Source of the DNA: Pachysolen tannophilus NRRL Y-2460
Lineage: Eukaryota
Length of the DNA: 64,000 nucleotides
Reading direction: 5' to 3'
Assembly: GCA_001661245.1 (NCBI GenBank)
Contig: KV454015.1
Coordinates: 1,155,759-1,219,758, forward strand
Below, piece by piece: positions 1,745 to 58,551 of the stretch. Every line of letters begins with the position of its first letter. Position 1 is the stretch's first letter. The position numbers and the translations under genes were made by a program. A model generated the notes under the pieces. The model saw only the letters and a program-made list of their open reading frames with translations, made no database searches and was not told the origin of the DNA.

Positions 1745-3190
1745 CTAGTACTTGTTATCTATATATTTGAATAGATCAACTAAACAATTTCTAGTTTCCT
1801 CTGGGTTAGCTATCCATACTGTGCATGCACTTCTTCTTGCCTTGTAATCATTTGCACCTACTGTGGCAAATTGATCACCAATATGTAAAGTTGAATTACT
1901 TTTTGCATCTTTACCTAGAAAAGTTTGTAATACTTTAACACCTAATGATTTATCACCAATATCAACCCATACATCACTACCTCCATTAAATGCACAAAAT
2001 TCAATTTCTTGTGCTGGTTGAAAATTATTTAATTTGTTATCACATATTAGGACAACTTCTTCCAACAGTTCTCTAAGTAATTTAAATCCAGGTTTCAGTA
2101 CCATACCAACGGCTCTTTCCTTTTTAACAACAATTGCTGGTAATTCTAATTTTCTAATTAAATCGGATAAGACTGATTCTGCAAAATCCAAAGTATTAGT
2201 AATATTTATTGGATTCCAACCTGCCATTGCCGGTAAGATCCATTTTGATGGTTCTATGAATTTTAATTTTTTCAAAACGCTATCATATTGTAATAAATAA
2301 TTTGCTTCTCCACCCATAACTAAAAAACGTTCTTTTTGTCTTTCTGTTAAACCATAAATTTCCAATTCTAAAGCATCTATTAATCCGTATAATCTTTCAT
2401 AATATTTCAGACCATCTTTATAACCAGCAGCGGTAACAATACCAATGAAAAAATTTCTACTCAACAGTTGAATAATTAATGGTATTAAAGGTGAATCTGG
2501 CATTAAACAATCTCCATCATCATATAATGTAACATCTCCATCAAATGTAATTAATTGTAATTTATCCTCTTCTTGTATTGAAACTGAATTGAAATTCCCT
2601 GATAATTGTAAAAGTTGAGCTGTATTTAATATAACTCTTACATCGTTAAAACTAGGACAAACTAATCTTCTTTTACTAATTGATCTTTTTTCATCTTCAA
2701 TATAAAAAGCTTTTTCTAAAGGTAATTGAGTGAAAAATTCTCCAACTGAAGGAACCAACTGTTTTAACCTTGAGAATTCAGGAGTATTTTGTGAATACAT
2801 AAATATTTGATCATCAACAAGACGTTCAATATCTGAAAATACTTCAGCATATCTTCTTCTAGCATCTGCACTGATTTTCATATCATCAGCAACTGTTATA
2901 CCACTGGATTTCACTGCATGAAGAACAAAAGGTCCTGCTAATACACCTTTTATCCATTCAATAAATTCATCACGACGATGTTGTTTTAAAGCGTCTTGAA
3001 AGAAGAAAAAAATAAAAAAAATTTTTTTTGTTAATATATAAAAACCATAAACTTGTCAAGCGGAAATAATCACTTACATTCAACGCGATATCTAATTTCA
3101 ATTGCTCAGTTAGTAGTTAAACTTGAAGTGAAGAAAAAAAAAAAGTTCTTTTTTTCTTTTAAAAGCTAGAAAAACTTACCTTGAAGTCAT
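1745..3190 (-). CDS. ISN1: IMP-specific 5'-nucleotidase; 3 exons (3190-3180, 3091-3078, 2994-1745)
   Basis: Spliced N-terminus MTSRYRVEYALKQHRRDEFIEWIKGVLAGPFVLHA matches Isn1. HAD motif TFDGDVTLY, AFNGGSDVWVDIGDK and HIGDQF present. Introns 3179-3092 (GTAAGT..TACTAAC..TAG) and 3077-2995 (GTAAGT..TATTAAC..AAG). Confidence 0.93.
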
Positions 3191-3333
3191 TGTATAAAGA
3201 CTAAATTCAAGAATCTAATAAAAAAATGAAACTTGCTCATCTAGTTATTTATTATTATGTATGCATTTTTGTCTTTTTAGTTAGTTGAACTAAATAAAAT
3301 AAAATAAAATGAAATAAAAAATAAAAATTAAAG

Positions 3334-3406
3334 CACCCATGCTGGGAGTCGAACCCAGAATCTTTTGATTAGAAGTCAAACGCGTTAACCATTACGCTAC
3401 ACGGGC
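3334..3406 (-). tRNA. tRNA-Arg(UCU), intronless
   Basis: Reverse complement GCCCGTGTAGCGTAATGGTTAACGCGTTTGACTTCTAATCAAAAGATTCTGGGTTCGACTCCCAGCATGGGTG is 73 nt and folds as a cloverleaf. Anticodon TCT, GTTCGA T-loop. Confidence 0.95.
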
Positions 3407-7944: not shown

Positions 7945-8838
7945 ATGACAGCTGATATTATTGATGGTAAAGCCATCAGTGCTGAGTTACGGGTCAAGAT
8001 TCGTGATGAAATCAATGAGTTGAAGTCATTGAATAAAAATTTCAATCCTAAATTAGTTATTATTCAAGTTGGGTCAAGACCAGATTCATCAACTTATGTT
8101 AGAATGAAATTAAAAGCGTGTTCTGAAGTTGGAATTGACTGTATTTCTGAAAATGTTCCAGAGGATATTTCTCAAGAGGAACTTCTTGCAAAGATTGAAC
8201 TGTTAAACAATGATGATTTGGTTCATGGTATGTTAGTTCAATTACCATTACCACCTCATTTAAATGAATCTATAATCACAAATTCTGTTAAACAATCAAA
8301 GGATATTGATGGGTTTTCTCAATTAAATTTGGCTTCTGTTTTCAAGAAAAATGATTATCCATTATACTTACCATGTACTCCAAAGGGAATTTTATATCTT
8401 TTAGAACATGAAAAAGTTGGAATTTCACATAAAAATATTGTTGTTTGTGGTAGATCAGATATTGTTGGATCACCTTTAGCTAAATTATTGGAGAAAAAAG
8501 GTGCTACAGTTACTATATTACATTCTAAATCAACAGAGGAGCAAAAGAAATTTTATATTTCTAATGCTGACATAGTGGTGTCCGCTGTAGGTCAAGCTAA
8601 TTTTATCACTGGTGATTTCATAAAAACTGGTTCTACTATAATTGATGTCGGTACTAATTTCGTTCCAGATGCTACAAAGAAATCGGGCCAACGAATGTGT
8701 GGTGACGTAGATTTTGAAAGTTGTTTAGAGAAAGCAGGTAAAATTACTCCTGTTCCTGGTGGAGTAGGTCCAATGACTGTGGTCATGATATTGGTAAACG
8801 TCTTGGATTCTGCTAAGAAAGCAGCTGGTATAATTTAA
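7945..8838 (+). CDS. Methylene-THF dehydrogenase/cyclohydrolase (FolD-type), stand-alone N-terminal half of C1-THF synthase
   Basis: IIDGKAIS, YVRMKLKA, LVQLPLP, KDIDG, PCTPKG, GRSDIVG, IDVGTN, ITPVPGGVGPMTV. Ends in TAA at 8836-8838; no mitochondrial presequence. Confidence 0.9.
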   Translation: MTADIIDGKAISAELRVKIRDEINELKSLNKNFNPKLVIIQVGSRPDSSTYVRMKLKACSEVGIDCISENVPEDISQEELLAKIELLNNDDLVHGMLVQLPLPPHLNESIITNSVKQSKDIDGFSQLNLASVFKKNDYPLYLPCTPKGILYLLEHEKVGISHKNIVVCGRSDIVGSPLAKLLEKKGATVTILHSKSTEEQKKFYISNADIVVSAVGQANFITGDFIKTGSTIIDVGTNFVPDATKKSGQRMCGDVDFESCLEKAGKITPVPGGVGPMTVVMILVNVLDSAKKAAGII

Positions 8839-9456: not shown

Positions 9457-11427
9457 ATGCCACAAGATTTTAAAAGATTGAAGTTGAATTTAGTTAAACC
9501 AGTCCCATCGGACTTTGAGATTTCTAGAAACCAAACACCAAAACACATTGTTGATGTTGCCAAAGAATCTGGAATCTTAGATGATGAGATTGAACCTTTT
9601 GGTTCGTATAAGGCAAAAGTTAAGCTTTCATTATTGGACAGATTACACGCTAGGAAGAATGGTAAATATATACTTGTTACAGGTATTACGCCTACACCAT
9701 TAGGTGAAGGTAAATCTACTACTACAGTTGGTTTAGCTCAAGCACTTGGAGCTTCTTTGAACAAGACAGCATTTGCCAATGTTAGACAGCCATCAATGGG
9801 TCCAACTTTTGGTATTAAAGGTGGTGCCGCCGGTGGTGGATTTTCACAAGTTATTCCTATGGATGAATTTAACATGCATTTAACTGGTGATATTCACGCT
9901 ATTGGTGCAGCTAACAACTTGTTAGCTGCAGCACTTGATACCAGAATGTTTCATGAGAAAACTCAAGCTGATAAGGCTTTATTTAGAAGGTTGTGTCCAC
10001 TTAATAAGGATGGTTCAAGAAATATTCCAAAAGGTTTAATACCAAGAATTGCTAAATTAGGGCTTGATAAAAAGCCAATAGAAGAATGGACTGATGAAGA
10101 AATTGGTAAATATGTCAGATTGGATATTAACCCTGAAACTATAACATGGAAAAGAGTTGTTGATGTGAATGATAGATTTTTAAGAGGTATCACAATTGGT
10201 CAAGCAGCCACTGAAAAAGGTTTTACAAGAGAAACAGGTTTTGATATTACTGTTGCATCAGAATGCATGGCTATCTTGGCATTATCAAACTCTTTAGTAG
10301 ATTTAAGAGATAGATTAGGTAAAATGGTAGTTGCTTCATCTCATCTGGGTGAACCAGTTACTTGTGAAGATTTAGGTTGTGCTGGTGCTTTAACTGCATT
10401 ACTTAAAGATGCCATTAAACCAAATATTATGCAAACTTTAGAAGGAACACCAGTTTTCGTTCATGCAGGTCCATTTGCTAATATTTCCATTGGTGCATCG
10501 TCAGTTTTAGCTGATAAGATGGCTTTAAAGTTAGCAGGTGTTGATCCTGGATTAACTCCAGAAGAAGAAGAAGAAAAAGTGGGTTACGTTGTTACAGAAG
10601 CAGGTTTCGATTTCACTATGGGTGGTGAAAGATTCTTGAATATTAAATGTAGATCATCAGGTTTAAAACCAGATGTTATCATTATTGTTGCAACAGTTAG
10701 AGCTTTAAAAGTCCATGGTGGTGGTTCAGAAGTCAAAAGTGGTCAAGATTTACCAATTGAATATACAACAGAAAATTTACCAATGCTTTCAAAAGGATGT
10801 GCTAATTTAGCAAAGCATATTGAAAATGCTAAACAATACGGAGTTGATGTTATTGTTGCAATAAACAAGATGTCTGCTGATACAGCAGCTGAGCATGAAA
10901 TCATTAGAGCCGAATCATTAAAAGCTGGAGCTATTGATGCTATTATCTCAAACCACTGGGAAGAAGGTGGTGCCGGTGCTGTTGATTTAGCTAAAGGTGT
11001 TGTAGCATGTGCTAATAAAGAATACCCATCTCAAAAAGAAAGAGAAGAACAATTCAAATTCTTATACGATTTGGAAAATTCATCCATTGCCGATAAGATT
11101 ACCGCAATTGCAAAGAAAATGTACGGTGCTGGTGAAGTTGAATTTTTACCACAAGCTCAAGAAAAGATTAAAGAATATACATCTCAAGGATTTGATAATT
11201 TACCAATCTGTATAGCCAAGACTCAATATTCTTTATCTCATGATGCTAAATTAAAAGGTGTTCCAACTGGTTTCAAATTCCCAATTAGAGATATCAAAGC
11301 ATCTGTAGGTGCAGGATATTTGTACGCTTTAGCCGCTGAAATACAAACTATTCCTGGATTAGCTACAAGATGTGGATTTATGAATGTTGAGGTTAATGAA
11401 GACGGTGAGATCGATGGGTTATTTTAG
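9457..11427 (+). CDS. 10-formyltetrahydrofolate synthetase, stand-alone C-terminal half of C1-THF synthase (ADE3 locus)
   Basis: [66 protein letters not shown], ends IDGLF. ATG at 9457. Confidence 0.92.
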
Positions 11428-11909: not shown

Positions 11910-13058
11910 ATGTCATCGACAGATATTCCTGACAAGGAAAACCTAAGTAATAAAGAAGATACCAAATCAATTTCCCATAATGACTTACGAACTCCTGCCC
12001 AAATGATTAGACGTGAAGAATCAATAAATTTAGTTACGCCATCAAAGTCACCAAACATAACGAAATTACCGCCTTTACCACAAGGAAGTTCTATCGTATT
12101 GCCGAAACGCAGAAAGATTTCAGAAACAGGGCCACAAGAGCCTACTTCATTATCATCATCATCGTCACCTAGTGGTAAACTGAGTAATCAGAACAATTCA
12201 TCGTCATTTACGCCATTAATACCAATAAAATCAAGAAATTTTACAACACCGTTACCTCATCGCGTTAGGAGAATACCTTCTTTGAATGATACACCTATTC
12301 CAGATTTGACTCCACCTACATCAACATCTATTAATGCATCACTTTCCTTTACAGAATCAAGTCCTCTGAAACTGGAATTTGGTTCTTCTCCTTTGGTTTC
12401 AAGAAATTTTTCTTCTCCATATCCTCCATTGAAAAGAAATCAAAGTGATTCTTCACCAATGAAAAACCAAAGTATGCAACTGAAAACATCACTGGGAAAT
12501 GAATCAGGTGAAACACAAAAATCATTGATAGGTGATTTTAGAAGAGAAGAAAACAACCTTGATAGAGAAACAAGAGAGATTCGTCATAAAATCGAAACAA
12601 TAAAACAGTTTAAAACCATTAGAGATAAACAAAAGATTCAAGAATTAGAAGAAAGAATAGCTAAATGGCGTCACATATCTTCATCTGCAGCACTGTATTT
12701 GATTAATGAAGTCAAGTTGAAAATTAGCAGGTCTGGAGGTTGGGCAGAATTTAAAAGAGCTCAAAGTAAGAAGAACAAATCACAATTTTATGATGAAACA
12801 ATTTTGGATAATTTGAAAAACTATAAAGAATCTATTGAATATACTCAGTTGGATAAATATGAACAGGAAGCTATTGATGAAAAACTTGCAGAAGAAGAGA
12901 AAAAATATGAAGATTTCTATAACGATGATGATATTGATAAAGACGCAAAATTTGAGGTTGAAGAATTTGCTAATGAAGAAGATGAGATGAAAGAAATCTT
13001 GAAAATATTTGGTATTGACGAGGAAAAATTTAATTTGATCTATAATAATACAGATTGA
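11910..13058 (+). CDS. Mei5/Sfr1-family recombination mediator
   Basis: Ser/Pro-rich disordered N-terminus, coiled coil, then IQELEERIAKWRHIS...KISRSGG. Lies between TFB2 and VPS30, as MEI5 does in S. cerevisiae. Confidence 0.7.
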   Translation: MSSTDIPDKENLSNKEDTKSISHNDLRTPAQMIRREESINLVTPSKSPNITKLPPLPQGSSIVLPKRRKISETGPQEPTSLSSSSSPSGKLSNQNNSSSFTPLIPIKSRNFTTPLPHRVRRIPSLNDTPIPDLTPPTSTSINASLSFTESSPLKLEFGSSPLVSRNFSSPYPPLKRNQSDSSPMKNQSMQLKTSLGNESGETQKSLIGDFRREENNLDRETREIRHKIETIKQFKTIRDKQKIQELEERIAKWRHISSSAALYLINEVKLKISRSGGWAEFKRAQSKKNKSQFYDETILDNLKNYKESIEYTQLDKYEQEAIDEKLAEEEKKYEDFYNDDDIDKDAKFEVEEFANEEDEMKEILKIFGIDEEKFNLIYNNTD

Positions 13059-13290: not shown

Positions 13291-14673
13291 ATGTCTCAGT
13301 TAGATTACGAGTATAGATGTCAGAGGTGTAAGTTGCCTTTGATTATTCATGAGTCTTTAGATGATTTAAGTATTGCTCAATCAAGGTTATTGATATCATC
13401 AATTAATAGTAATAATAGTAATAATGGTAATAATCATAATACATCACAAAACAAGGATGAATTGATAGGAGAAAATCCAGTGATATCGAAAGATAGGTTA
13501 CAGTTACTTCAACAGGCTAGTTCAAATAATAAACCTTTATTGAATAGGACATTGTATAATGAGACTACAGACTCATATGTGTTATTACCTGAACAAAGAG
13601 AACGAGAAAATAGGCAAAAATCTTTACAAGCTTCTGATACTACCATGTCAGATAATATTAATACTTTAGATAATTTTTTCAATATCATATCATCTAAGCA
13701 AGAGATTGATTATCCAATATGTACATATTGTGCTAATTTATTAATTGAGCAAATGAAATTAAAGTTGGATCAATCTGTTAAGGAAAAAGATGTTTATTTA
13801 CAATTTTTAAAAAAATTATCCAAACAATCTGGACCTGATTTAAATAAATCAAAGGAAGCAGTACTGGAATTAGATAGATTGAAAACTCAAGAAAAAGATT
13901 TGAATCAAGAATTTGAAAATTTGAAAATTGAAGAGGAAAAATTATTACATGAATTAAAAGAATTGGAATTAGAAAATATAAAATTAACAAAAGAAGAAAG
14001 CGAAATTTGGATAAAGAGAAATAAATTTGAACAAGAGGTGATTGATTTTACTCAAGAAAGGGATAGTGTTAATGCAATGTATGAATTTAATTTAAATCAG
14101 CTAGATAAGTTAAGAAAATCAAATGTATATAATGATACTTTTAAAATTTCACATAATGGTCAATTTGGAACAATAAATGGTTTAAGATTAGGAAATGCTG
14201 ATAGTTCAAAAATATCATGGCATGAAATTAACGCAGCATTAGGGCAGCTAATTTTGTTATTATCGACTTTAGTAAATAAATTAAATATTAAATTAGATGG
14301 TTATAAATTAAGACCAATGGCTTCATATTCCAAAATAGAAAAAATTGATAAATCACAAAACAACAAGGCAATAACTTTAGAATGTTATTCCTCAGGTGAT
14401 TCTTCTTTTGAAAGATTATTAAACCATTACAAATTTGATACCGCAATGTGCACCATATTGGATGTTGTAAGACAAATTGGAAATTTTTTGAAAAATTTAG
14501 ATAACTCAATTGATTTACCATACGACATGGATGAAGAAAAAATAGGAGGACTAAGCATCAAATTACAATCAAAAGTTACAAGCGATGAATGGACCACGGC
14601 TTGTAAGTACTTGTTGACTAACACAAAATGGATATTAGCTTACGCTAGCGCTCATTCTAGTAACTTAAGATAA
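13291..14673 (+). CDS. VPS30: Vps30/Atg6 (Beclin 1) PI3K complex subunit
   Basis: CQRC, IDYPICTYC, coiled coil, FKISHNGQFGTINGLRLG, WHEINAALGQ, WTTACKYLLTN. Confidence 0.95.
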   Translation: MSQLDYEYRCQRCKLPLIIHESLDDLSIAQSRLLISSINSNNSNNGNNHNTSQNKDELIGENPVISKDRLQLLQQASSNNKPLLNRTLYNETTDSYVLLPEQRERENRQKSLQASDTTMSDNINTLDNFFNIISSKQEIDYPICTYCANLLIEQMKLKLDQSVKEKDVYLQFLKKLSKQSGPDLNKSKEAVLELDRLKTQEKDLNQEFENLKIEEEKLLHELKELELENIKLTKEESEIWIKRNKFEQEVIDFTQERDSVNAMYEFNLNQLDKLRKSNVYNDTFKISHNGQFGTINGLRLGNADSSKISWHEINAALGQLILLLSTLVNKLNIKLDGYKLRPMASYSKIEKIDKSQNNKAITLECYSSGDSSFERLLNHYKFDTAMCTILDVVRQIGNFLKNLDNSIDLPYDMDEEKIGGLSIKLQSKVTSDEWTTACKYLLTNTKWILAYASAHSSNLR

Positions 14674-18140: not shown

Positions 18141-19172
18141 TCATATAAAGTCTGAATATGAATAATCGAGAAGTTGATATGAATAATTGATATATTGGTC
18201 AAATTTTCCACCAATGTATCCTGTTGATGGACCTAATTGTCCTATTTTATACAAACTTACAGCACCACAAATAGTTAGTCCATGAATAATGAAATAAGCA
18301 ATTTTTCTACTCTTGACGCTGTAGAATTTCAAATATCTCATCCAGCCACTGACAATATGATAAGAGGCGCACCATACCAAAAAGGTCAATCCAGTAAATG
18401 TAATTATATTCTTTCTTGCAAGCAGATGCGAGATATACCCCAAATTTATCAAGGAAGAGTCACCATCTATAATCAATGGAATTATTCTTTCCTGAAAAAT
18501 ATGATACAGTACTATAGGGACTAATAAGTATCCAGTAAAGCTTAAGGGTGAAAGACCCAATTTACGTGAAATAAAAGATTTCCTTGGACCTATTCCAAGA
18601 AAAGTGGCAACTCCACCAAGGCCATAATCATCATCAAGTTTCTTATTCTTTCTCTTGGTGACGTTAATTACATCAGATCTCTCTGGACGCTCAGAATTGT
18701 GTGTTTCACGCCTTTCCGGAGAAGAACCACTTCCTCCATAATATGATTTCTTTCTAATGTTTCTTAATATCCTAATAGTAATACCACTTAATATATGCAC
18801 AGTTAAGCTTCCAAAGATCAATATTCCTTCTAATCCAGGCATTTGATAAATCGTTCTAGACATCATCATAACTTCATCGGCAATTTCAACAGAGATTAAT
18901 GGCGATATTAAAACCGATGAGCCATGTAAAAGCAGGAAAACACTGAAAACAATTGAGGAATATTTTTGCAGTTTTAATAAATACCTTGTAATCTTTGAAA
19001 TTATCTTCTTCGAGGATTCATTCTCCAAAATTTCAACTTCTGAATTTCTTCTAGACTTGTTAATTCCGATATTATCTCTTGAAGTCATAGATCCGTTACT
19101 AATTTCTAGCGGTTCAGGCGATAATTGCTTCAAGTTTAAATACTTTTCTTCATCCTGATATTTATGAGACAT
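18141..19172 (-). CDS. MCP1: Mitochondrial outer membrane Vps13 adaptor Mcp1
   Basis: N-terminal PxP-like motif LKQLSPEPL, QKYSS..F..LH, R.IYQ....E, HILSG, DGDSSLINLGYISH, YHIVSG. ATG at 19172. Confidence 0.75.
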   Translation of the reverse strand: MSHKYQDEEKYLNLKQLSPEPLEISNGSMTSRDNIGINKSRRNSEVEILENESSKKIISKITRYLLKLQKYSSIVFSVFLLLHGSSVLISPLISVEIADEVMMMSRTIYQMPGLEGILIFGSLTVHILSGITIRILRNIRKKSYYGGSGSSPERRETHNSERPERSDVINVTKRKNKKLDDDYGLGGVATFLGIGPRKSFISRKLGLSPLSFTGYLLVPIVLYHIFQERIIPLIIDGDSSLINLGYISHLLARKNIITFTGLTFLVWCASYHIVSGWMRYLKFYSVKSRKIAYFIIHGLTICGAVSLYKIGQLGPSTGYIGGKFDQYINYSYQLLDYSYSDFI

Positions 19173-22968: not shown

Positions 22969-25900
22969 CTAAACATCTTTATGCCATTTGAGTTTTAATC
23001 CCGGGCCTGAATTGGTATTAGCAGTGGGTCTAATTTCTTCTTCTTCATCCTCTGAGTCTCTGTCCCCAGTATTTGCCAAACCTAATGCATTCAAACGTCT
23101 GATACGTTCAATGTCCGTTTCTTCTTCTTCCCGTGACACTCTATTGTGATCTTGTTCCTCTTCTGTCTCCTCTTCTGTTTCTTCAGAGTATTCTCCTTCG
23201 TCTGAATTTTGTACTCCTTCTTCTTCTTCATCTTCATCTTCATCTTCAGAAGTTACCAGTCTAGGTGGAGGCGAATGCGATTTCATAACCTGGATATTAT
23301 CAGGACCAGTACTAACTATATTCGCAAATTTCGGAGTTTCCGCTTTCTTGCCATCTTTCTTGTACTCATCCAATATATTTGCTAACTTGTTTTGGATGTG
23401 TTTCTCATTTTCTCCAAGAAGCTCATCATCCTTCGCAGAATGCAGTACCCCTTCTGATTCTGGCACTAATACCAAATCAGAATTTCTTTCGCCAGCCTCT
23501 GCTGTAGACTCATTCATTCCATGTTGCTTTTCAAAATCTCCAGGAGTAGCTGAAGTAGGCGAAGATGTCGATGTTGATGATAACGTTTTACGAATACCAA
23601 CCAAGGAAAGTGCTTTCTTGGTTAATGTTGAAGCCAGAGCAGGTATAGTCGGTGTCTTATCAGCATCATTAAAATTAAGATGTTGCGCCTGGTGAGTATG
23701 TTGCCTTTCAATACCATCATTGCCAGGTTCGTGCTTTCTAATCTTGTAACGCTTCATAATTTCACCTTCTTCATTCTCTATAATAATTTCATCATCAATT
23801 CTGAAAGCAAAATATTTACCTTTCTTACGACTTTTTTCATCTTTATGAAGAGTTGGAATTGGTTGTATACTATCACCTGGGTGCAGAAAGCCACCATGAC
23901 CATGACCAGCACCAAGAGCTTCTTCTTCTTCTTCTTCTTCTTCTGTCTCGCTACGAAGTTTTTCAACCTCCCTTTGTTTTGCATCAATCGTAGTATCACT
24001 ATCTCTTATCTCAGATGAATCCTTTGATGAACTTCCTCTAGATAATGGTGTCAGGCTCTCATCATCATCTGGATAATCAACTACTGACATTACTTCTCCA
24101 TTCTCATCATCTATGATTAATTTATTACCCTCTTGATAACCTTTCTTCGCATGTCTTCTTTCACCATCAGAATCTCTTTCTTCAGATTCGTCCAATGGTA
24201 GTCCCAGTTGCTGTCTATGTCTAATACCCGAAGGAGGTGAAGCAGATGATGTTAAAACTCTACGAGGACCAAAATGTTGAGGAATTGTTTCTATTGCTTC
24301 CTCCGAAGAAGTTTCTTCCAGTTTTTTCTCATTTTCCTTTTCAATCATCTCAGCAGTGGTAGCTACTGCTGCAGCACGTTGCAGACGATCTCTATGAATT
24401 TTATTTAAATCCAAATTTTCTGAAACAGGTCTAGCCCTCTTCTTTTTTTTGAAATTCTTACGCTTCTTCATTCCACCAGCAGGACGTACTGGAATACCAC
24501 TTGTTTCAATAGTAGTAGTGGCACTTAAAGGTTGTTGTTGATGTTTTTCCAGAAATTTAGTATCAGAAGAAGCCATGGTATCAACTTTATGTAAAGAGAA
24601 TGAACGACCATTTGTTTCCAATCTTGGTAAACGAGACATCCATGATTGTGAATTTGGATTTGCTTGTGTTTGTGTAAATGACATTGTAAATGAAACCGTT
24701 CTTAAATGTCTACCAAGAACTATAACAGCGACAGAAGATCCATGGACTATAATTGAAGTTAATATGATAAATGTTACAATGGGCCAAAGATAAGTAATCA
24801 CATAATGATGACTTACTCCATCTGAAGGGATTTGATCTAAATAACTTTCATGATTTGTATAATGCTCTTCTAATAATTCTCTTGCTAATATTACTGCATA
24901 AACAGCACCTACTCCTATAGGACCAAAATGTCCAGCAAATAGAGCTTCTCTTGAAGTATTTAAATCTGGAGTTAATTTCCAAATTGCCATTACAGCAGGA
25001 ATTCTTCTTAAAAATATAATCACTATTGCAAGACAAATAAATTTCCAAATTGGTAAACCAATATCTGTTTTATTGTATAATTCCCAAGGAATAATTGCAC
25101 CAAAATAAACAAAATAAGCTAAATTTAAAATCAAATCAATGACTGTTGAAATATGAGAATCTTCTGTTTTCTTTGCATAAGCGCCATTCCAAGCAAACGC
25201 TGTACCGGCGGCAAATGCAACTAATAATTCATCAACACCAATAATGGATCCAATACCAGCACAAGCAAATGCTAATATAAGGAAAATTGCTAAAAAAGAT
25301 TCTCTATCTATAAGATTTGAATTTTCACAATAAATTAACATTTTTCTTGCTGACCAACCAATTATTGTTCCCAAGATACAACCAAATATACATTCATATA
25401 GAATTGTAACACAAATCCATTCTTTCACTATTTCTCCAGCATTTCCTTCATGAATGATCAAATTATAAGCTAAAAAGATAAATGGGAAAGCCATACCATC
25501 ATTACAACCACTTTCAGCACTTAATAAATTACGTAAATGACCAGGAACACGTTGAGCAAATTTACCTTTACCAACAACAGCTGCTGCCAAGACAGGATCA
25601 GTTGCAGTAACACAACCAGAGACTAATAAAGCTTCTGAAAAATTTAAATTAGGTCTAAAAATGATCCAAATAAATAATCCAACTATTAACCAACCAGCAG
25701 TCATTGTAGGAACAAGTAATATAAATAATGAAATCCAATGTTTTTTCATATATTTTTTCGGTAATTCAACTGCAACTGCAAAGATTTGAATACATAATAC
25801 AATTTTTGAAATTTGAAAAGTTAAATTTTCTAAACCCCATTGTGTTGGTATAAACCATTTTAAACAATGCGGTCCAACTATTAATCCAACAATAGTAGCA

Positions 25901-35104: not shown

Positions 35105-35609
35105 AGAATCAAAAAATTAAGACAATGAATTTGTTGAATCGAAAGATTTCTTTTTTAATGTAAAACTACTGATTCATTATAATAATAATAATATTCCTTA
35201 GTACTTTAAAATTCAAAACCTTTTAATAATATGTGATTTGTTAAAAACAATAAATAAAAAATAAAAAAATATAAAAAAAAAATTATTAGAAATACTTCAA
35301 TACTTTTTTTTTTTTTTCTGACCTTTAATCTAACAACTGTGATTTTTATTCTTTTCACCGGAAATTTTAAATTGCCTGAATTAAAATCAAAACAGAGAAA
35401 ACCAAATGAAAAAATAAATAGAAAAAAAAAAAAAAAAAAAATAAAAATATAGTATAATGTTCTTTATGGTAATAGTTATAAAAATAAAAATAAAAATAAG
35501 ATGAAACAACACTTGTGTATACAACCCTCTTAATAAAAACTAACAAAAACAAAAACAAAAACAAAAAAAAAAATAAAAATAAAAATAAAAATAAAACAAA
35601 TCCAAACCT

Positions 35610-38195
35610 TCAATCCTTTTTCAAATTTTCTAATTTCACCGCGTTATCCAAAGCCATTAAAATAGTTTCATAACATATAACATATTGATTTAAAGTTTGT
35701 ACCATTGATATGCGTTGTCTTCTCAATTCATGGACTGTCTTGTAAATTAAATCATCATCACCCCAAAATTGTAATTCCCTGTGATACTGATAATGTCCAA
35801 TATCTTGATATTGATCTTTATCGTTATCTTCTTTGTTATTTTCTTTTGAATTTATTTTTTGTAAAGGATACAATTGCAGTTTCAATTTTGTATACGGTGT
35901 AGCATCCACAGAGTCCGATCTTCCAGAGATTGGTGTAACGCTTGACATATCTTTCATATCTTTCAGTGATGATGGATCTTCCAGTTCTAATGCCAGTAAA
36001 ATCAAATCTATAGTAATAAAAGTTCCAGTTCTTCCACATCCAGCTGAACAATGAACTGCAATAGGACTTTTTTCATTATTTACCAAACTTCTCTTCAATT
36101 CAATCAATCTAATAATAGAACTTGGTGAAGGTGGGATACCAAAATCAGGCCAATCTTTGAAAACTAATTGATGAATCAATCTGCTTGTAGAATTTTTACT
36201 AACTTCCAAAGTTCTAATAACGATATCCACATCTTCCACTAATTTTTCATGAATATTTCTGATTTCAATACCACTCTCATATTTCTGATTTGACCAATAA
36301 CTGTCCGATTTTCTAATTCCATTTTCATCAAGATTTGTTAAACAAACTATAATTTCAACTTTATTATACCAAATGGCTCTCCAAAAATCATCAAAAGTTG
36401 AAGGCAATGGCAGTTGTGTTGCTATATACCTGTTTTTGGAAATAGTTGGAACCATAACATAATTGGCATTAAAATAATCTCGATCATTCTCTACATTTTC
36501 CAACTCTTGACTATTACTATTTGTACTGCTGCCGTTCTTCAAAATATTATTATTTGCAGCATTAACAACCAGAGGTGAATGCAAATTTTTAACTCTTGAA
36601 TGTTCATAAGGCCAGATGTTTGAATACCTATTCTTACTTCCATACTCGATACCTTCAGGAAGAGTATAATTGATTTGATCACATGATGGGCAAGGTGCAC
36701 TTGGTGAACAAACTGAATCACAACAACAGTACAGTAGGTGCTGCGGTTGCTGCGGTTGTTGTAGTTGCTGTTGCAGTTGCTGTGTCAACAGGTGTTGACG
36801 AAGGCCTTCTTTGTTGCAACTACAATTTCTCTGAGGAACGTTTAAACGTACAACGTTTTCCAATCTTGTGTTTTCCAATTCTTCAATCTTGTTAAAATTT
36901 TTTTGTGCAATTTTAAAACCTTGTTTGGGATCAAGAAATGGTTTTAACCAGTTTGGTAACTGTTCACGATCCAATGAACAATTTGGTGGTAAATGTATAA
37001 TATCATCTTCCGAATCATAAGTGATACCTAAAAGAGGGACTTTTTTAATTGATGATGCAAAATTGCTACGGAATCCATTGTTTGAAGGTAAGGAAAATCC
37101 TGATAATGGAGCAGGAGAAACTTTAACATTTGCATTTGGAGCTGTTATTGCAGATAAATTAGATGAACTATCTGTTGTGCTAAACGACAGTGCAGATGTT
37201 GGAGAAGCTGGTGAAATTGGAGAATTTGAAACTTCCAAGGTGTCTATAATTGCCGATACTGGGTCTGTGGAAATTATATTTGAAACTCCATTATTAATAA
37301 CAAAAATAGAGACATTTTTTTGTAAATTTTTTTCTTCGAAATAGTTTATAAATTTTAAAACAGTTTGGTATAAATGGAAAGATGCATTGCATAAAGTACT
37401 TGCATCATCATACAATACAATTTTTAAATTTTCATTTTCATTATTAATATTATCCTTTTTTAAGTGTGCCAATTTGGATTGTAGAAATATTTGTTGATTT
37501 TTTTGCATTGAACCAATAACATTTTTTAATGTAAAAGTTTTTCTTTTCAATAATGTTGTTGGTACACAAACATTTAAAGAATGAATTATTCTTGACAGTA
37601 AATATGAGGTATAAGGTCTAACGTCTATCACTACTGTATGTTCATCATTTAAAAATCCCAAAGATAAATCATCTTTATCCAACAGTTTAACACAATCTGG
37701 AAGAACATAACTATGAATACAATTTCTTTTGAATCCAAAAAAGGATGGAGTTGATGTCTTATTCCCAGAAACAGCATCATGCACCTGAAGAAAACTAAAA
37801 TCTGGTTTCTTATCCAAAGATTTCGAGTTTTGTTGTTGTTGCTGCTGTTGATTTTCTAGGTATGTTGTATCTGTTTTCAACAATGGAACACCTTTTGTCA
37901 GAGGCGACATCATAGATGCCGAAGCAGCCGCGGAAGCAGCCGCTGATGTAGGTGTGGATCCCGATGCTGATGCCGATGCCGATGTCATTGTCAGTGTCGG
38001 CGCTTTCGCTAATGGCGCCGATGGCGCAGATGGGCTATTATTGAAATAATTTCCATTCTCTTTATTATTGTTATTCAAAAAAGTTGCAGCCGCCAATGAA
38101 GTGGTTGTACTTGGAGAATTTTCTTGTGAATGTGGATGTGAATGTGAATGTGAGTGAGAATGAGAATGAGAACGCGGGAAAATTGTAGTCGTCAT
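35610..38195 (-). CDS. MAPK tyrosine phosphatase, Ptp2/Ptp3 type (rhodanese-like + PTP domain)
   Basis: IDVRP..SLNVCVPTTLLKR rhodanese-like domain; KNRYSNIWPYEHSRV, DYFNANY, WPDFG, VHCSAGCGRTG, QRISMVQT. ATG at 38195. Confidence 0.92.
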   Translation of the reverse strand: MTTTIFPRSHSHSHSHSHSHPHSQENSPSTTTSLAAATFLNNNNKENGNYFNNSPSAPSAPLAKAPTLTMTSASASASGSTPTSAAASAAASASMMSPLTKGVPLLKTDTTYLENQQQQQQQNSKSLDKKPDFSFLQVHDAVSGNKTSTPSFFGFKRNCIHSYVLPDCVKLLDKDDLSLGFLNDEHTVVIDVRPYTSYLLSRIIHSLNVCVPTTLLKRKTFTLKNVIGSMQKNQQIFLQSKLAHLKKDNINNENENLKIVLYDDASTLCNASFHLYQTVLKFINYFEEKNLQKNVSIFVINNGVSNIISTDPVSAIIDTLEVSNSPISPASPTSALSFSTTDSSSNLSAITAPNANVKVSPAPLSGFSLPSNNGFRSNFASSIKKVPLLGITYDSEDDIIHLPPNCSLDREQLPNWLKPFLDPKQGFKIAQKNFNKIEELENTRLENVVRLNVPQRNCSCNKEGLRQHLLTQQLQQQLQQPQQPQHLLYCCCDSVCSPSAPCPSCDQINYTLPEGIEYGSKNRYSNIWPYEHSRVKNLHSPLVVNAANNNILKNGSSTNSNSQELENVENDRDYFNANYVMVPTISKNRYIATQLPLPSTFDDFWRAIWYNKVEIIVCLTNLDENGIRKSDSYWSNQKYESGIEIRNIHEKLVEDVDIVIRTLEVSKNSTSRLIHQLVFKDWPDFGIPPSPSSIIRLIELKRSLVNNEKSPIAVHCSAGCGRTGTFITIDLILLALELEDPSSLKDMKDMSSVTPISGRSDSVDATPYTKLKLQLYPLQKINSKENNKEDNDKDQYQDIGHYQYHRELQFWGDDDLIYKTVHELRRQRISMVQTLNQYVICYETILMALDNAVKLENLKKD

Positions 38196-38592
38196 TATAT
38201 CAATTATGTTATGTACTTCAAAAACAAGTAAAAAAACCAAAAAATTGATAAATCGTTCTTTCTTTCTTGTTGGTATAAATGATAATTACAAAACATAGAT
38301 CAATTAATAAATAACTAGTTTTGAAAATGGATTCAATATATTAATCAAATCTTTTGTTTGTATTAAAATAATAAAAATGGTTAAGTCAAAACAAACAAAA
38401 TTTTAATTAACCGCCAATGGAAAACTACTGGTATTAAACAAAGGAAAAAGGAAAAAAAATTATGTCAGGTGTACTAAATTATAATAAAAAATAAGAAAAA
38501 AAAAATAATGAATTCAAACCACTGCGAACCCCTTTTTTATTTTCCCCCAGATCCAAAATGAATCAAAAAATGATTGATAATTAATAATAATT

Positions 38593-44104: not shown

Positions 44105-44860
44105 CTATAGTATCCTTCCTAAACCATTACACAGGTTACAAATTTCTTCATCTAAAAAAAATGGAACTAAACCTTTACCACCACATTTGTAACATAAGCT
44201 ACCACCTATTGCAGGATCACCAGGTTTTACAACCCTAGCATTTGGTGGAGGAGGACCAGGACTCATACCAGGCACAGCAGCTGGAGATCCCATATACCCA
44301 TTATTGGTTCCATTGTAGCTATTCATTCCAGGAAAAGGGGGTACATATGGACCAGGTCCCGAAGTAGGAATAGCTGCAAATGGTATCTGCGATGCCATAG
44401 GAGTTTGTGGTGGAACGTATTGTGAATTTGGTGATGAACCATAACTTGGACCATAATATATATCTGGTCTAAATTTCTTCCAACAATCTTTACAAACTCT
44501 ACCATTTTTCAATTTATAACCTGTATTTTTACATTTTTTGCAAAAATAGCCCTTTGGGTATCGGAAAGGTAAATCTAAATTGGCTGTATATATATCTGAA
44601 GCGTCTGTACTACTATTATGACTCTGTTGACTATGTTTAGGAGGAACTGAATTACCAGACAATTTCTGTGAAGATTGTGAAGCTTCCACCAGTGCTGGTG
44701 GGCGCGCCGGTGGTCGAGTTGATGGCCTAACTGATGACAGTGGTCTAGCACTGGAAGAAGAACCTGTCTCTTCATTTAAAACTTCTTCATATGAAGGCGG
44801 ATCCAGCGGTGGCCGTTGTTGTTTCAAACTTTCCGATTTTTGAAAACTATCTTTCCCCAT
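44105..44860 (-). CDS. HUA1: Proline-rich zinc-finger protein Hua1
   Basis: PPSYEE, YPKGYFCKKCKNTGYK..G..CKDCW, VVKPGDPAIGG.LC..CGG.G...C..C.GLGRI. ATG at 44860. Confidence 0.88.
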   Translation of the reverse strand: MGKDSFQKSESLKQQRPPLDPPSYEEVLNEETGSSSSARPLSSVRPSTRPPARPPALVEASQSSQKLSGNSVPPKHSQQSHNSSTDASDIYTANLDLPFRYPKGYFCKKCKNTGYKLKNGRVCKDCWKKFRPDIYYGPSYGSSPNSQYVPPQTPMASQIPFAAIPTSGPGPYVPPFPGMNSYNGTNNGYMGSPAAVPGMSPGPPPPNARVVKPGDPAIGGSLCYKCGGKGLVPFFLDEEICNLCNGLGRIL

Positions 44861-50200: not shown

Positions 50201-53200
50201 GTTGGAAATCGTCCAATTAACCGGTATAACACCTTTCCCATTCTGACATTATGAACTAATTCACCTAGCTCGCCAGCATCCATTCCCCTCAAAATATCCA
50301 TTGATGGATTTTTGCTTTCAATGTTTCTCATGATCTGCTGGGGCAATTCAAACTGATGTATAGGGTGACTAAGTGACCACATTCTTTTATCAATAGATTT
50401 ACAAATAGTTAACATAATCTTGGTGAATACTCCCCACCTTCTATTTAGGCCCACTAAAAATAAAGCTCGGCAAATTCTTGCAGAATTTTGGGCAACATAC
50501 AGAGCATCAGATGCCAATGCAGAGTCTTTAATATTATCTTGAGACACATATGCTTGTAACAAAATATTGGTTTTTCCTTGAGCAGAATCAGGAGTTCCCC
50601 CTATTTGGCAAACAGCCTTTTCTAGCAACTGCATCAATTCCTGTGACTCTTCTTCTCTAAACTTTATAGAATCGAATTCTGCACTTGTACTAATGATAGA
50701 TAGGACATCTGCCTCAGAAGCAGTAGGTTTAATCAATTGGTTAAATATCTCAACAGAATCATTTAACAAATAAAAATCTGAGGCAATCCTACCTAAATCT
50801 TTCGCAATGAATGACATAGTTCTTTCATCGAACACAATCATTTGTAAATAATGTAGTCTTCGAGCAGCAGAAATAATCATTTCTCTACGCCTTTGTACTA
50901 ACTGAGGATCTTCTGCTAATTCTTTCCAATCAATAGCATAAGCAAAGGGGTTTTGCCTCATTCGGACATTTAAATATGTATAACCTAACCACAGTACACC
51001 TTCGTCCACATTTGTTACAGTACCTAGTGAAATTTCTGCATTTAAATTATCAACAATCTTTTCTGAGAATTTTGATTCAATTGGGTGTTGTTGAGTTAAA
51101 AGGGAAATATAATGATCCAAACGATCACCAGTAGTACACAAAATACCAGTACCAAAAACTTCTTGCGTATCATTGGAAATTCTAGGTTTTTTACTGTAGC
51201 TAGAATCAGCTCCTAATGTAGTGAATTGAGGACGACCTGCTCTACCAAAAATTTGAATAATGTCTGATATTCCTAAATCCACAAATCCACCACGTTTTGA
51301 ATCATAAACTTGAGTACCTTTTATGATCACCACTGCAGCAGGTAAATTAACACCCCAAGCTAAAGTAGCAGTACAACATAGAACCTTTATCGCACCTGAT
51401 AAAAACATTTTTTCTGTTAAACGTCTATCAGATCTCGGCATACCAGCATGATGGACACCAAATCCAGATATAAACAATTCTCTCATATCTTTATTTTTGT
51501 TTTTACTCATTTCTCTGCTAAATTGTTCATATGAAGGGGACTCAGTACAATCAAACAAATCAGAATCATTAAAATTTCTTGAAAATTTGATGAAAGTTTT
51601 TGATGTATTTATAGTATCTTTTCTTGAATGAACAAAAACCATAACTTGGTGACCCTCTTCTAATTTAGAGATCAATTTTTCATATGAAACTCTGTCTATT
51701 TTCTCCCTAGCCTCTTTAGAACCACTCTTACCTTTGATACCAAGTATTTCTTGTCTTAATGGAACTGGTCTGAATGAACTATCAAAATAAAACATACCAA
51801 CTTGCCTATTAACACCTAAAAAGTCTGCAACGTCCATAAAATTGGGTAAAGTTGCAGATAAACCTAGTATTCTTATCATCGATTGAGTACTTTCTACTTG
51901 TCTCAATGTTCTAGCAACCAATGTTTCTATCACGGATCCACGATCTTCATGTAAAAGATGTACTTCATCAATTATGAGTAATTTCAATTTTTCAACTAAT
52001 TCTGTATCACCATTAGATTTTCTTGTTACAACATCCCATTTTTCAGGAGTTGTCACTATAACCTGTGTTCTTACTATTTCAGCTTTTGTTAATTGCATAT
52101 CACCTGTTAATTCTCTAACTTGGATTCCCAACCATTGTAACTTTTTGCTGAATTTTTCCACAATTTCTGCAGCTAATGCTTTTAACGGAGCTACATAAAC
52201 AATTTTGAATTCACTATAATTAATATCCACTTGAATACCGTCTTCAGATTCTGTCTGAGAGACAAATTGATTTATTGTATGTAGTATAGTTAATAATGCA
52301 ACATCTGTTTTACCAGCACCTGTTGGAGCACATACTAGCATATTTTCATTTGTATTATAGGCAACTGGATAAAGTAACAGTTGAATTCTATTTAAAGATT
52401 TATAATCTTTAAAAGTACCTTGACATAAGAAATCCAAATCTTTTATATACACGATTTTTTCTTTTTTCAATTTAGATTGAGATTTTTTAGTATAAGGTAT
52501 TATAAATTCTTCATGAGTATCAAAGCTATACCTTTGAGAATCTTTTGGTAAAGAATATTTTTTCCCTGTAACGGAGATCATATTACCTCCAGCATCATCT
52601 GATTTAAAAACGTGAGGGTATATTGTCTTTGATTTATAAGAATCCAACGTTTGTGTTTTTGCTAGCCTTGCGTTTTCTCTAACTTGAATATTTCTTTCAG
52701 CTTCAGTCATAAACTTAAATTTCCCATCATCTTGAGATAAAGGAGATTTAATTTTTTTGTTAAATTCATCAATTAAAACATCTTTATTTGAAATAATTTT
52801 TGCAATTAAATCAAACTCATCAAAACCTAACAAGTTGATTAAAACTTCTTCAAGATCACTAGATTCAAGTAAGCATTGCATTATATTTTGGAAAAGTTGA
52901 TTATCTTCATTAGCGCTATTGTTGTTATTGGCACCATTGGAACCATTGGAACCATTACTGCCATTATTATTTTCAATTCTATTACATTCTCTTCGTACGT
53001 CATTCAACAAACTTTCTTCTTCATCCGAGGAAAACCCAGCCTGCTCTTGTTCCTCCAACATCTGCTGAAACTCATCTTCAACACCACTAAAACCGCTCAA
53101 TAACAGATCCACATTTGGTGTTATTGTTGAATTAATTTTTAAATCTCCAATATTATCATTAATATCATTTGGTAACGGCAATTTAACAATTTCTTTACTC

Positions 53201-55105: not shown

Positions 55106-55136
<31 letters not shown>

Positions 55137-55146
55137 AATATAAAAA

Positions 55147-56811
55147 ATGTCATCTTCGGCTGAAGATATAATAATATCGGCAAATGATGAAGTTTCTAAA
55201 CCTGTTGATGAAAAAAAGCCAACTCTTTTAATTCCAGCTACAGAGACTTCAGCAGGTGAAGACCGTATTAAACAGTATCTTCCTAAATATGATAGATTTT
55301 GGATGAGAACACCACATTTTTTAAAGTTGAATGCACTTATGGTTGTTGTTTCATTATCTTCTACCAATACTGGTTATGATGGTTCTTTGTTGAACTCTTT
55401 GCAAACATTTGATGAATGGGTTAGTTACATGGGTAACCCAGATGGTGCAGTCTTGGGTGCATTAAACAATGGTGTTGTTTTCGGTGTTGTTTTAAGTTTC
55501 TTTTGTGCTTCTTATATTTCAGATAAATATGGTAGAAGAAATACTATTGCATTTGGTAACATTTTCATGCTTATTGGTGTTATTATTCAATCTTGTTCTA
55601 TAAATTATGGTCAATTTTTGGTTTCAAGAATGATTATTGGTTTTGGTAATGGTATTGCAATTGTTCCATCTCCAACTTTAATTAGTGAATTGACTTATCC
55701 AACTCATAGACAAATTGTTACAACTTTTTATAATAGTTGTTGGTATCTTGGTGCTATTGTTGCCGCATGGGTCAGTTTTGGTTCAAGAAATGTCACCCAT
55801 AATTGGTGTTGGAGAATCCCATCCATCGTTCAAGGTTTCTTCCCATTGGTCCAAACTTTATTTATCTATTTTGTACCAGAAAGTCCAAGATTTTTAGTTA
55901 ATAAAGGTCGTTATGATGAAGCTAGAGAAATCTTATTAAAATATCATGCAGGTGGTGATGAACAATTAGGTGGAGCTTTAGTAGATTTTGAAATGGCTGA
56001 AATTCAATCTGCAATTGAATTAGAAAAAATTGCAGCAAGGAGTAAATATTCAGATTTTTTCAAAACTCCTGGTAATAGAAAAAGATTTTTCTTACTTACA
56101 TGGATTGCTATTATGATGCAATTATCAGGTAATGGTTTAGTCTCATATTATTTAAATAAAGTCTTAAATTCTATTGGTATGACTTCAACAGACGAAAAAT
56201 TGATTGTCAATGGTGGTTTAATGATTTATAACTTTGGTATTTCAATGATTATTGCATTCTTTGTTAATTTTTTCAAAAGAAGAACAATGTTTTTGTTTTC
56301 TAACGTTACTATGTTAATTGTTTACGTTATTTGGACAATTCTTTCTGCTATCAACCAAGAAAGAGATTTTGCAGATAAATCATTGGCACAAGGTGTCTTG
56401 GCAATGATCTTCTTCTACTACTTGGCTTATAACGTTGGTTTAAATGGTCTTCCATACCTTTACTTAACAGAAATTTTACCATTCACATTAAGAACAAAAG
56501 GTATCAATTCATGTTTGTTCATCCAACAATTTGTCCAAATTTACAACGGTTTCGTCAACTCAATTGCAATGGATGCTATTGAATGGAAATACTACATTGT
56601 CTACTGTTGTATCTTGGCTGTTGAACTTGTTGTTGTTTACTTCACTTTTGTTGAAACTTCAGGACGTACTTTGGAAGAAGTTGCAGAAGTCTTTGGAGAA
56701 CAACCACAAGAATTATCTAAAGATTTCGACACTTTAAAAGGTACCGATGAACAAATTGAAAACAAGGACACTGCTTCCAGCGATAGTCAAGATAACGTCA
56801 TTGTTGTTTAG
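55147..56811 (+). CDS. MFS sugar porter, LAC12/cellodextrin-transporter-like
   Basis: GYDGSLLN, SDKYGRR, LISELTYPTHR, YNSCWYLGAIVAAW, WRIPS, PESPR, QLSGNGLVSYY, TEILP..LR, VETSGRTLEE. Confidence 0.85.
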   Translation: MSSSAEDIIISANDEVSKPVDEKKPTLLIPATETSAGEDRIKQYLPKYDRFWMRTPHFLKLNALMVVVSLSSTNTGYDGSLLNSLQTFDEWVSYMGNPDGAVLGALNNGVVFGVVLSFFCASYISDKYGRRNTIAFGNIFMLIGVIIQSCSINYGQFLVSRMIIGFGNGIAIVPSPTLISELTYPTHRQIVTTFYNSCWYLGAIVAAWVSFGSRNVTHNWCWRIPSIVQGFFPLVQTLFIYFVPESPRFLVNKGRYDEAREILLKYHAGGDEQLGGALVDFEMAEIQSAIELEKIAARSKYSDFFKTPGNRKRFFLLTWIAIMMQLSGNGLVSYYLNKVLNSIGMTSTDEKLIVNGGLMIYNFGISMIIAFFVNFFKRRTMFLFSNVTMLIVYVIWTILSAINQERDFADKSLAQGVLAMIFFYYLAYNVGLNGLPYLYLTEILPFTLRTKGINSCLFIQQFVQIYNGFVNSIAMDAIEWKYYIVYCCILAVELVVVYFTFVETSGRTLEEVAEVFGEQPQELSKDFDTLKGTDEQIENKDTASSDSQDNVIVV

Positions 56812-57272
56812 AATTTAATTATTTCCTTGTTTTTTTTTTTCCTCTTTTTCTTTATCTTTTTCTTTTTTTTCTCGTTGTTCAGTTATTTACAGTTTTATAT
56901 TGTCACTTTTACGTTTTATGACTCTTCATAGCCTATGCTATTTTCTTCTCATTTCTGTTTTTTTTTTTTATTACTTATATTTATTGACGGGGAGAGATTT
57001 TCATTGTTGTATCTTGAATAAAATTGATTAGATGTACTTTTTAAAATGAACTTTTATTAAAAAAATATTATAAAAATCCTGTAATTTGCCTTATTTCCTC
57101 TTTGGGATTTGCCTTTTTAAATTTCAAAAAAGGGCAAAAATGTCACGGGATCTGTGCCCTTTTCCTGAAAGTGATTTAAATCTTGATAAAACAAACAAAC
57201 AAACAAATTGATTGATTGCAATTTAAATTGTGATTTTTTAAGATCTTGATCAAGGCGGTTAAGTGTTGGAAG

Positions 57273-58551
57273 ATGTCTGGAAGTTATGGAGACGTTTTTC
57301 TGGAGATTGTATGCATTAGTTTTTATTTTATCTTTTTTTTTTTTTTGGTTGAAAATTTGTGTTTATTTATGATTAAATATTAAAGAACTTGTTCTAACTT
57401 CAACAATTTTTTGTGTTTTTCTTTTTGTGATCTAGGATTTTGATTCAAAAGATGTTTTCGAAACTTCTGATCATGAGGACTCTTTGAGTCTTATCCCGTT
57501 GGAAGAAACTTTTTCTGGTAGGAGTTCTATTGAGGAAACTGAATTTTCATCCTCGAATGCAAGACTGGTTTTTGAAAATGAAATAGTGGATAGCGCTAAT
57601 GCTGATTTTAGCGGTGCTGTTGTAAATGGCGGGGTGGGAAGCCGTGGCAATATCTCCTTCAAAGTCCCGGAGACTATTGAGCAAAAATTTGTTAGGCTTC
57701 AAAGAGAATTTGAAGAGTTGAAGTTAGCAAAGTTAAATGATCAAAGAGAGTGTTTAAACCCACTGATAAAAGATGATGATGTTGATAATTTTCTTAAAAT
57801 GTTGGAAAATTTGAATTCAAATAAATTTTTTGAAATACAATCGGATTCTACTGCTTTATCTAAGCTAAAAGATGAGCTTAAAATTGATTTAACTCCATAT
57901 CCAGTAAAAATTGCAAATGAATCAACAATCACTTCTGACCAAATAGCAGGACTAGATTCAAGATTGGCGAAATTAGAATCAATTCTTGGATATAGTGAAA
58001 GTACCGAGGCACAAAATTTCACCATTCAAAGTATGATTAATGATTTATATAGACAGGTCTCAATAATGAGTAATCCAGATTTTATTAAAAATGATGTTGA
58101 ACCATTAATTGAATCTTTAGAAAGACTGAAAAAATTCAATAATGATTCTAGTGAAAGAATGAATAGGATGGCTTTTTTACAAAAAAAAAATCCTTATACT
58201 TTGGAAAATGATGAATCAAATAATACAAGTATAATAGAATCTAAGAAAATTCATCTGATATATGAAAAATTGGTATCTTTGCCAAATTTTGAAGAATTAC
58301 TTCCCTCAGTTATTAATAGACTTAAATCATTAAATAAATTGCATTTACAAATAGGTTCTTCTGTGGATTTTGTGGATAACTTGGATAACAGATTAACCGG
58401 TTTAGAAACTTCTATCAAAGAATGGGATGAAACCTTGGACCACATGGAAACGAAATTTAATGAATATCAAAAACTTTCAAATAATAATAAACAAGAAATC
58501 AAAGCATGGATAGATGATTTAGATAAAAAAATAGAAAAAATTAATGATTAG
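57273..58551 (+). CDS. JNM1: Dynactin subunit dynamitin (Jnm1/p50); 2 exons (57273-57308, 57436-58551)
   Basis: Spliced N-terminus ...EI/DFDSKDVFETSD, ETIEQKFVRLQREFEEL, LDSRLAKLESILG, LLPSVINRLKSL..LH. Intron 57309-57435 (GTATGC..TTCTAAC..TAG). Confidence 0.85.

Follow-up and report, generated by a model that had tools for sequence, protein, structure and literature searches.

Genes of the window and loss of CTG from the leucine codons

The subject of this analysis is the codon CTG in a 64-kb stretch of DNA, referred to here as the window. A first-pass annotation had proposed that CUG has been removed from Leu in this DNA, and this was borne out, with CTG being the sole non-standard codon among the 52 tested. 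The G+C content of the window is 30.4%, and it contains 26 open reading frames (ORFs) of at least 200 amino acids (aa), which together comprise 15,368 codons. Most of these ORFs were identified with Pfam as ordinary budding-yeast genes. Their identities include Isn1, Std1/Mth1, Tfb2, a FolD-like dehydrogenase/cyclohydrolase, FTHFS, Atg6, the large subunit of ribonucleotide reductase, Mgm1, Nha1, NPT1 (nicotinate phosphoribosyltransferase), importin-11/KAP120, a tyrosine phosphatase (PTP), a DEAD-box helicase, GTP cyclohydrolase I, Efg1, Slh1, a sugar transporter, and dynamitin. The ORFs on which the analysis of CTG draws are as follows.

1745 to 2881, minus strand: Isn1 (IMP 5'-nucleotidase) ORF, identified with Pfam, 4 CTG codons
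7945 to 8838, plus strand: FolD-like ORF
9457 to 11427, plus strand: FTHFS ORF
30412 to 31680, plus strand: NPT1 gene, identified with Pfam, 6 CTG codons
32045 to 35104, plus strand: KAP120/importin-11 gene, identified with Pfam, 10 CTG codons
35610 to 38195, minus strand: PTP gene, identified with Pfam, 14 CTG codons
47281 to 53301, minus strand: Slh1 ORF
57799 to 58551, plus strand: dynamitin-like ORF

CTG accounts for 86 of the 15,368 codons (0.56%) and is spread over 23 of the 26 ORFs, a count that covers every ORF of at least 200 aa. In the same ORFs, the other Leu codons occur 828 (TTA), 427 (TTG), 182 (CTT), 78 (CTA), and 18 (CTC) times. A full listing of CTG codons placed all eight that the first-pass annotation had named in frame and at the right positions. 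Three public sequencing runs, from two studies, yielded contigs that span positions 30411 to 35404 and 35610 to 38400, with zero letter differences from the window. Thus, no assembly error underlies the 30 CTG codons that NPT1, KAP120, and the phosphatase contain. In intergenic DNA, the contigs of all three runs differed from the window at positions 30170 to 30171, where AT was read as TA, and carried one extra T in the T run behind 31865 and another behind 35303. Since both studies show these three differences, they are possibly small assembly or contig errors.

For a profile test of the codon, four genes (NPT1, KAP120, the phosphatase, and Isn1) were translated with X at each CTG, so that no residue was assumed. 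Homologs of the first three were 119 of the 120 listed hits each, the row left out being the window's own protein. For Isn1, 144 of 150 library representatives were used, and six of at least 700 aa were left out. The sequences were aligned with MAFFT and weighted by the Henikoff method, and a column was taken as alignable when its weighted occupancy was at least 0.5. This gave 25 alignable columns for the 34 CTG codons of the four genes (9 of 10 in KAP120 and 6 of 14 in the phosphatase). Codetta-like log-odds were then summed over the columns of each codon with at least eight columns (n = 52).

The standard residue was recovered for 51 of the 52 codons, and CTG, with its 25 columns, was the only failure. 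Leu scored -1.15 bits per column at CTG, compared with +1.87 at TTA, +1.53 at TTG, +1.67 at CTT, +1.92 at CTA, and +1.60 at CTC. The tally of CTG columns against homologs that the first-pass annotation had suggested likewise gave no dominance of Leu, which ranked first among homolog residues in 5 of the 25 CTG columns versus 196 of 268 columns of the remaining five Leu codons (Fisher p = 2.2e-7). The same held against the rare codons CTA and CTC taken together, with Leu commonest in 20 of 26 columns (p = 6.8e-5). In addition, TCG, GGG, GTG, CAG, GAG, and AAG all decoded as standard in this test. Since rare and G-ending codons were decoded correctly, neither rarity nor the G ending is the cause of the failure of CTG. 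The CTG columns were also less conserved, with a median top-residue frequency of 0.35 versus 0.60 to 0.71 for the other Leu codons. CTG in the window therefore behaves unlike a Leu codon, and the departure is far beyond chance.

Serine or alanine at CUG

Public protein records of the same DNA point to Ala. The translation with NCBI table 26 (CTG = Ala) was identical to a public protein for 7 of 13 ORFs tried, namely NPT1, KAP120, and the ORFs at 18144 to 19172, 11910 to 13055, 44108 to 44860, 60030 to 62111, and 13291 to 14670. For the NPT1, KAP120, and phosphatase ORFs, none of the three translations with table 1 and none of the three with table 12 had an exact public match. The six ORFs without an exact table-26 match probably have other gene models in the public annotation. 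The phosphatase is a case in point: its public model, P0241, begins at Met95, and each of the 13 CTG codons within it is given as Ala. In total, public proteins give Ala for 47 CTG positions, in eight gene models.

The phylogenetic placement points in the same direction. A tree of NPT1 and KAP120, concatenated in 15 rows and 1401 columns with CTG as X, was computed with IQ-TREE under LG+C20; two Phaffomycetaceae species were combined into a chimeric outgroup row. The window was placed as sister to Kuraishia, Candida boidinii, C. arabinofermentans, and Ogataea (Pichiaceae, 'Leu2') with a support of 95/96. Neither the Leu2 crown (99/98) nor the Ser1 crown of eight species (100/100) included the window. 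The published position of the Ala clade is that of the window in this tree (PMC5951914; PMC4986446). According to the first of these sources, the Ala clade consists of Pachysolen, Nakazawaea, and Peterozyma (PMC5951914), and NCBI taxonomy places Pachysolen tannophilus in the order Alaninales.

For P. tannophilus itself, the decoding of CUG has been measured by tandem mass spectrometry (MS/MS). Ala was found at 97.2% of the 907 CUG positions that fragment ions supported in full, and the tRNA(CAG) carries G3:U70 and A73 and is without a long variable arm (PMC4937558). The window is thus very probably nuclear DNA of a CUG-Ala clade yeast (Alaninales), most likely P. tannophilus, in which CUG is read as Ala (table 26). 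In this assignment, the choice of Ala rests on evidence from outside the alignments, namely the public records, the two-gene tree, and PMC4937558.

The steps by which such a code would have arisen have been published for P. tannophilus (PMC4937558) and may apply by extension to the window. The ancestral tRNA-Leu(CAG) would have been lost, and the old Leu-CUG codons would have dwindled and vanished. A tRNA-Ala gene would then have gained the anticodon CAG. Since the alanyl-tRNA synthetase would read the acceptor stem (G3:U70, A73) but ignore the anticodon, the tRNA(CAG) would still be charged with Ala, which would be inserted at CUG. The present CTG codons would then be young, having arisen afresh by mutation and mostly at sites that tolerate change. 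New codons at tolerant sites are expected to match no single residue in other species.

Several observations weigh against the reading of CUG as Ala, and some of them favor Ser, which would be inserted by an anticodon-mutated tRNA-Ser(CAG), as in the CUG-Ser1 (Candida, Debaryomyces) or CUG-Ser2 (Ascoidea, Saccharomycopsis) yeasts. No residue scored above zero at the CTG columns, where Ser did best (-0.08 bits), followed by Gln (-0.50), Ala in third place (-0.59), and Thr (-0.94). Ala was commonest in 0 of 25 CTG columns versus 43 of 94 GCN columns. With BLOSUM smoothing, which recovered the standard residue for 50 of the 51 other codons, the CTG scores were +0.25 for Ser, +0.14 for Gln, +0.10 for Thr, 0.00 for Ala, and -0.13 for Leu, and Ser was best in 615 of 1000 bootstraps. 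At Slh1 residue 308, the only near-invariant site with a small residue, all four distinct PDB homologs of the N-terminal cassette (yeast Slh1, human ASCC3, and two SNRNP200) have Ser. In an approximately unbiased (AU) test, grouping of the window with the Ser1 clade was not rejected (p = 0.092). The NPT1-only tree, the sole tree with Ser2 species, was an unresolved polytomy that left the position of the window relative to Ser2 undecided, although the window was not joined to the two Ser2 species. Leu leads in five CTG columns, and strongly so in two (Isn1 139, 126 of 140 homologs; NPT1 205, 87 of 119). A tRNA(CAG) was not found within the 64-kb window by tRNA scans, including intron-aware ARAGORN and Rfam. 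The public annotation reveals the choice of the annotators and not that of the ribosome.

Nevertheless, it is very improbable that CUG is read as Ser. The best score, that of Ser, is not positive, compared with +0.96 to +1.58 bits per column at true Ser codons. Ser was commonest in 3 of the 25 CTG columns versus 90 of 194 columns of true Ser codons (p = 0.001). The public records matched table 12 in 0 of 3 cases and table 26 in 7 of 13, and the best tree joins the window to Leu2 (95/96) and leaves it outside the Ser1 crown. Furthermore, an alignment-only analysis of 2014 had put Pachysolen under the Ser code (PMC4986446), and in 2016 the same group reversed this assignment by mass spectrometry (PMC4937558). 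Since that call was later overturned, the lean to Ser is a known artefact for the Pachysolen lineage.

The power of the alignments was examined with a control of 300 draws of 25 columns from true Ala codons at which Ala is not the consensus. Of these draws, 239 were called Thr, 39 Ala, and 21 Ser. The control thus shows little power at non-conserved sites, and the lean to Ser is not evidence for Ser. The indecision of the first-pass annotation between Ser and Ala was matched, as the 25 alignable columns cannot separate the two residues. A split of Ser from Ala by cross-entropy against non-consensus columns was tried and rejected for lack of power, with true Ala mostly called Thr; the six commonest calls in 1000 CTG bootstraps were Thr (384), Ser (192), Met (125), Asn (92), Gln (90), and Pro (59). 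In low-complexity ORFs, no internal repeats were obvious that would pair CTG with GCN or TCN. Among the database proteins, none was seen with an excess of Leu at the Ala of the query, which would be a sign of Ala-clade relatives.

The CTG sites named in the first-pass annotation are listed here together with one further codon of Slh1.

2066 to 2068, minus strand: Isn1 residue 272; Gln 37, Val 23, Ala 19, Ser 15, Ile 8, Leu 8, and Thr 6 among 144 homologs
2465 to 2467, minus strand: Isn1 residue 139; conserved-Leu column, with Leu in 126 of the 140 homologs that have a residue there
8200 to 8202, plus strand: FolD-like residue 86; Thr, Gln, Lys, Arg, and Asp in the five best PDB homologs
10345 to 10347, plus strand: FTHFS residue 297; Glu, Ser, Asp, Asp, and Asp in the five best PDB homologs (bacterial FTHFS)
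36411 to 36413, minus strand: PTP residue 595, motif YIATQ[CTG]PL; Asn 58, Ala 29, Gly 20, and Ser 10 of 119 homologs
50500 to 50502, minus strand: Slh1 residue 934; Asn in yeast Slh1, Ala in ASCC3, and Val in SNRNP200
50992 to 50994, minus strand: Slh1 residue 770, motif EGV[CTG]WLGY; Glu in yeast Slh1, Lys in ASCC3, and Asn in SNRNP200
52378 to 52380, minus strand: Slh1 residue 308, motif LNRIQ[CTG]; compared with PDB homologs
58255 to 58257, plus strand: dynamitin-like residue 153; mammalian dynactin subunit 2 has Gln (weak alignment, E = 0.03 to 0.06)

Slh1 308 had been singled out as a near-invariant Ser site, and the four N-terminal cassettes agree with this; the matching position in the C-terminal cassettes of the same homologs is Thr. 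Slh1 770 is a variable polar site among the aligned homologs. The conserved Leu at Isn1 139, put forward as a counter-example to reassignment, is genuine. Two expectations were not upheld. At PTP 595, where ATQGP or ATQAP had been anticipated, the commonest homolog residue is Asn and not Gly or Ala; the two closest homologs and the public model P0241 have Ala. At the dynamitin site, described as often KINALY, mammalian dynactin-2 has Gln (weak alignment, E = 0.03).

Of the seven CTG columns with the highest conservation, four carry a residue whose codon is a one-base neighbor of CTG (Leu twice, Gln, and Pro). Over all columns, one-base-neighbor residues (Leu, Met, Val, Pro, Gln, and Arg) were the consensus in 11 of 25 CTG columns versus 753 of 2316, which was not significant (p = 0.28). 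At KAP120 residue 545 (33677 to 33679), CTG stands in a column with Gln in 113 of 119 homologs, and at Isn1 residue 262 (2096 to 2098), in a column with Pro in 90 of 138. In both cases, the codon of the homolog residue (CAG, CCG) is one base from CTG. If CTG is Ala, these two sites are lineage-specific replacements of conserved residues.

A second alternative is ambiguous decoding, in which Ala would be accompanied by a minority of Leu or another residue through two competing tRNAs, as in Ascoidea asiatica, or a mischarged tRNA(CAG). The CTG columns do mix Leu-like sites (NPT1 60, 154, and 205; Isn1 139; KAP120 327) with small or polar ones. The tRNA of P. tannophilus is Leu-like at its anticodon and at G37, and 26 of the 907 positions gave another or an additional residue (PMC4937558). 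Dual decoding as Ser and Leu exists in Ascoidea asiatica (PMC6041473). However, in P. tannophilus, 97.2% of positions were Ala, the residual differences were no commoner than at the unambiguous AUG, and the tRNA is without the long variable arm required for charging with Leu (PMC4937558). Mixed columns are, moreover, expected of young codons that lie one base from Leu, Gln, Pro, and Val codons. Ambiguous decoding is thus hardly to be expected here. There is a slim chance that Isn1 139, NPT1 205, KAP120 545, and Isn1 262 mark residual, site- or context-dependent non-Ala decoding through the Leu-like anticodon loop. If Ala is not tolerated at those four sites, they would indicate that the Ala clade has a dual code at a low level, and not simply substitutions of other residues by Ala.

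The standard code, in which CTG would be a rare, G-ending, and mutationally young Leu codon at fast-evolving sites of a 30% G+C genome, agrees with the poor overall conservation of the CTG columns, with Leu as their most frequent top residue (5 of 25) and with the two strongly conserved Leu columns, but it is virtually ruled out by the equally rare or rarer CTA and CTC (Leu on top in 20 of 26 columns, +1.6 to +1.9 bits), by the correct decoding of the rare G-ending TCG, GGG, and GTG, by the -1.15 bits per column of Leu at CTG, and by the 0 of 3 public matches with table 1.

Gene structures and neighborhood

In addition to the genes already described, a single RNA gene was found in the window.

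3333 to 3406, minus strand: tRNA-Arg(TCT), 74 nt, Rfam tRNA score of 73 bits

Several ORFs begin deep in their Pfam profiles. The Isn1 ORF (1745 to 2881, minus strand) begins at profile position 50 of 407, the Na_H_Exchanger ORF (22969 to 25749, minus strand) at 67 of 375, and the dynamitin ORF (57799 to 58551, plus strand) at 192 of 396. A Drg-like ORF (58584 to 59255, minus strand) contains the C-terminal MMR_HSR1_Xtn and TGS domains only. These four ORFs likely have upstream exons and hence introns.

NPT1, KAP120, and the tyrosine phosphatase adjoin one another (30412 to 38195). In Babjeviella, the homologs of NPT1 and of the phosphatase bear consecutive locus numbers (160854 and 160855), and in Scheffersomyces amazonensis the gene model P0160 (1392 aa) has NAPRTase and importin domains fused. 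This neighborhood seems to be conserved across clades.

In Saccharomyces cerevisiae, the FolD-like and FTHFS domains are part of one trifunctional C1-tetrahydrofolate synthase. In the window, the FolD-like domain (7945 to 8838, plus strand) and the FTHFS domain (9457 to 11427, plus strand) are two separate ORFs on one strand and in one frame, with a spacer of 618 bp between them. This spacer contains in-frame stops, TATATAAG near position 9322, and TGAGTCA at 8932. A regular-expression search of this spacer for a GTATGT or GTAAGT 5' splice site or a TACTAAC-type branch point gave no match; a near match, TACTGAC, lies approximately 30 nt upstream of the FTHFS ATG. The table-26 translation of neither ORF is an exact public protein, and the public gene model therefore differs from both. 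The separation may reflect fission of the gene, or else an intron whose signals are unusual.

Comparison with known CUG codes

The code change in the window is real but already known, having been described in 2016 and being listed as NCBI table 26. The window is thus a further sighting of a known sense-codon reassignment and adds nothing new on reassignment itself. In practical terms, the standard code mistranslates 86 positions of the window as Leu, spread over 23 of the 26 long genes, and table 26 is needed. For the method, 64 kb is sufficient to recognize that CTG is not Leu but insufficient to name the replacement residue. Here, the alignment signal leans misleadingly to Ser, the same error as in the literature of 2014 (PMC4986446).

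Among the known systems, the CUG-Ser2 yeasts (Ascoidea, Saccharomycopsis) resemble the window in that CUG has been reassigned, few CTG codons occur in conserved genes, and alignment results conflict (PMC5951914). They differ in the source of the tRNA and in the residue, and their clade is sister to Leu1 (PMC5951914). The Ser2 clade includes A. asiatica, in which CUG is decoded stochastically as Ser or Leu.

The CUG-Ser1 code (table 12; Candida albicans, Debaryomycetaceae, Metschnikowiaceae, and Babjeviella) has lost the same codon from Leu. It is also alike in its anticodon-mutated tRNA, in a synthetase that ignores the anticodon, and in CTG being rare and confined to weakly conserved sites. 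However, its residue is Ser, table 12 gave 0 of 3 matches, and the window lies outside the Ser1 crown, although the AU test gave p = 0.092.

The 'Pachysolen tannophilus nuclear code' (NCBI table 26) is like the window in the non-Leu behavior of CTG, in the Ala of the public proteins, and in a lineage that is sister to Leu2. CUG codons of recoded clades tend to fall at poorly conserved sites (PMC5951914). The placement of CTG at such sites is common to Pachysolen and the window. Between the code of Pachysolen and that of the window, no difference was found. The density and gene share of CTG in the window (86 codons; 23 of 26 ORFs) are also close to those published for P. tannophilus, in which 16,824 CUG codons occur in 80% of 5288 genes (PMC4937558).

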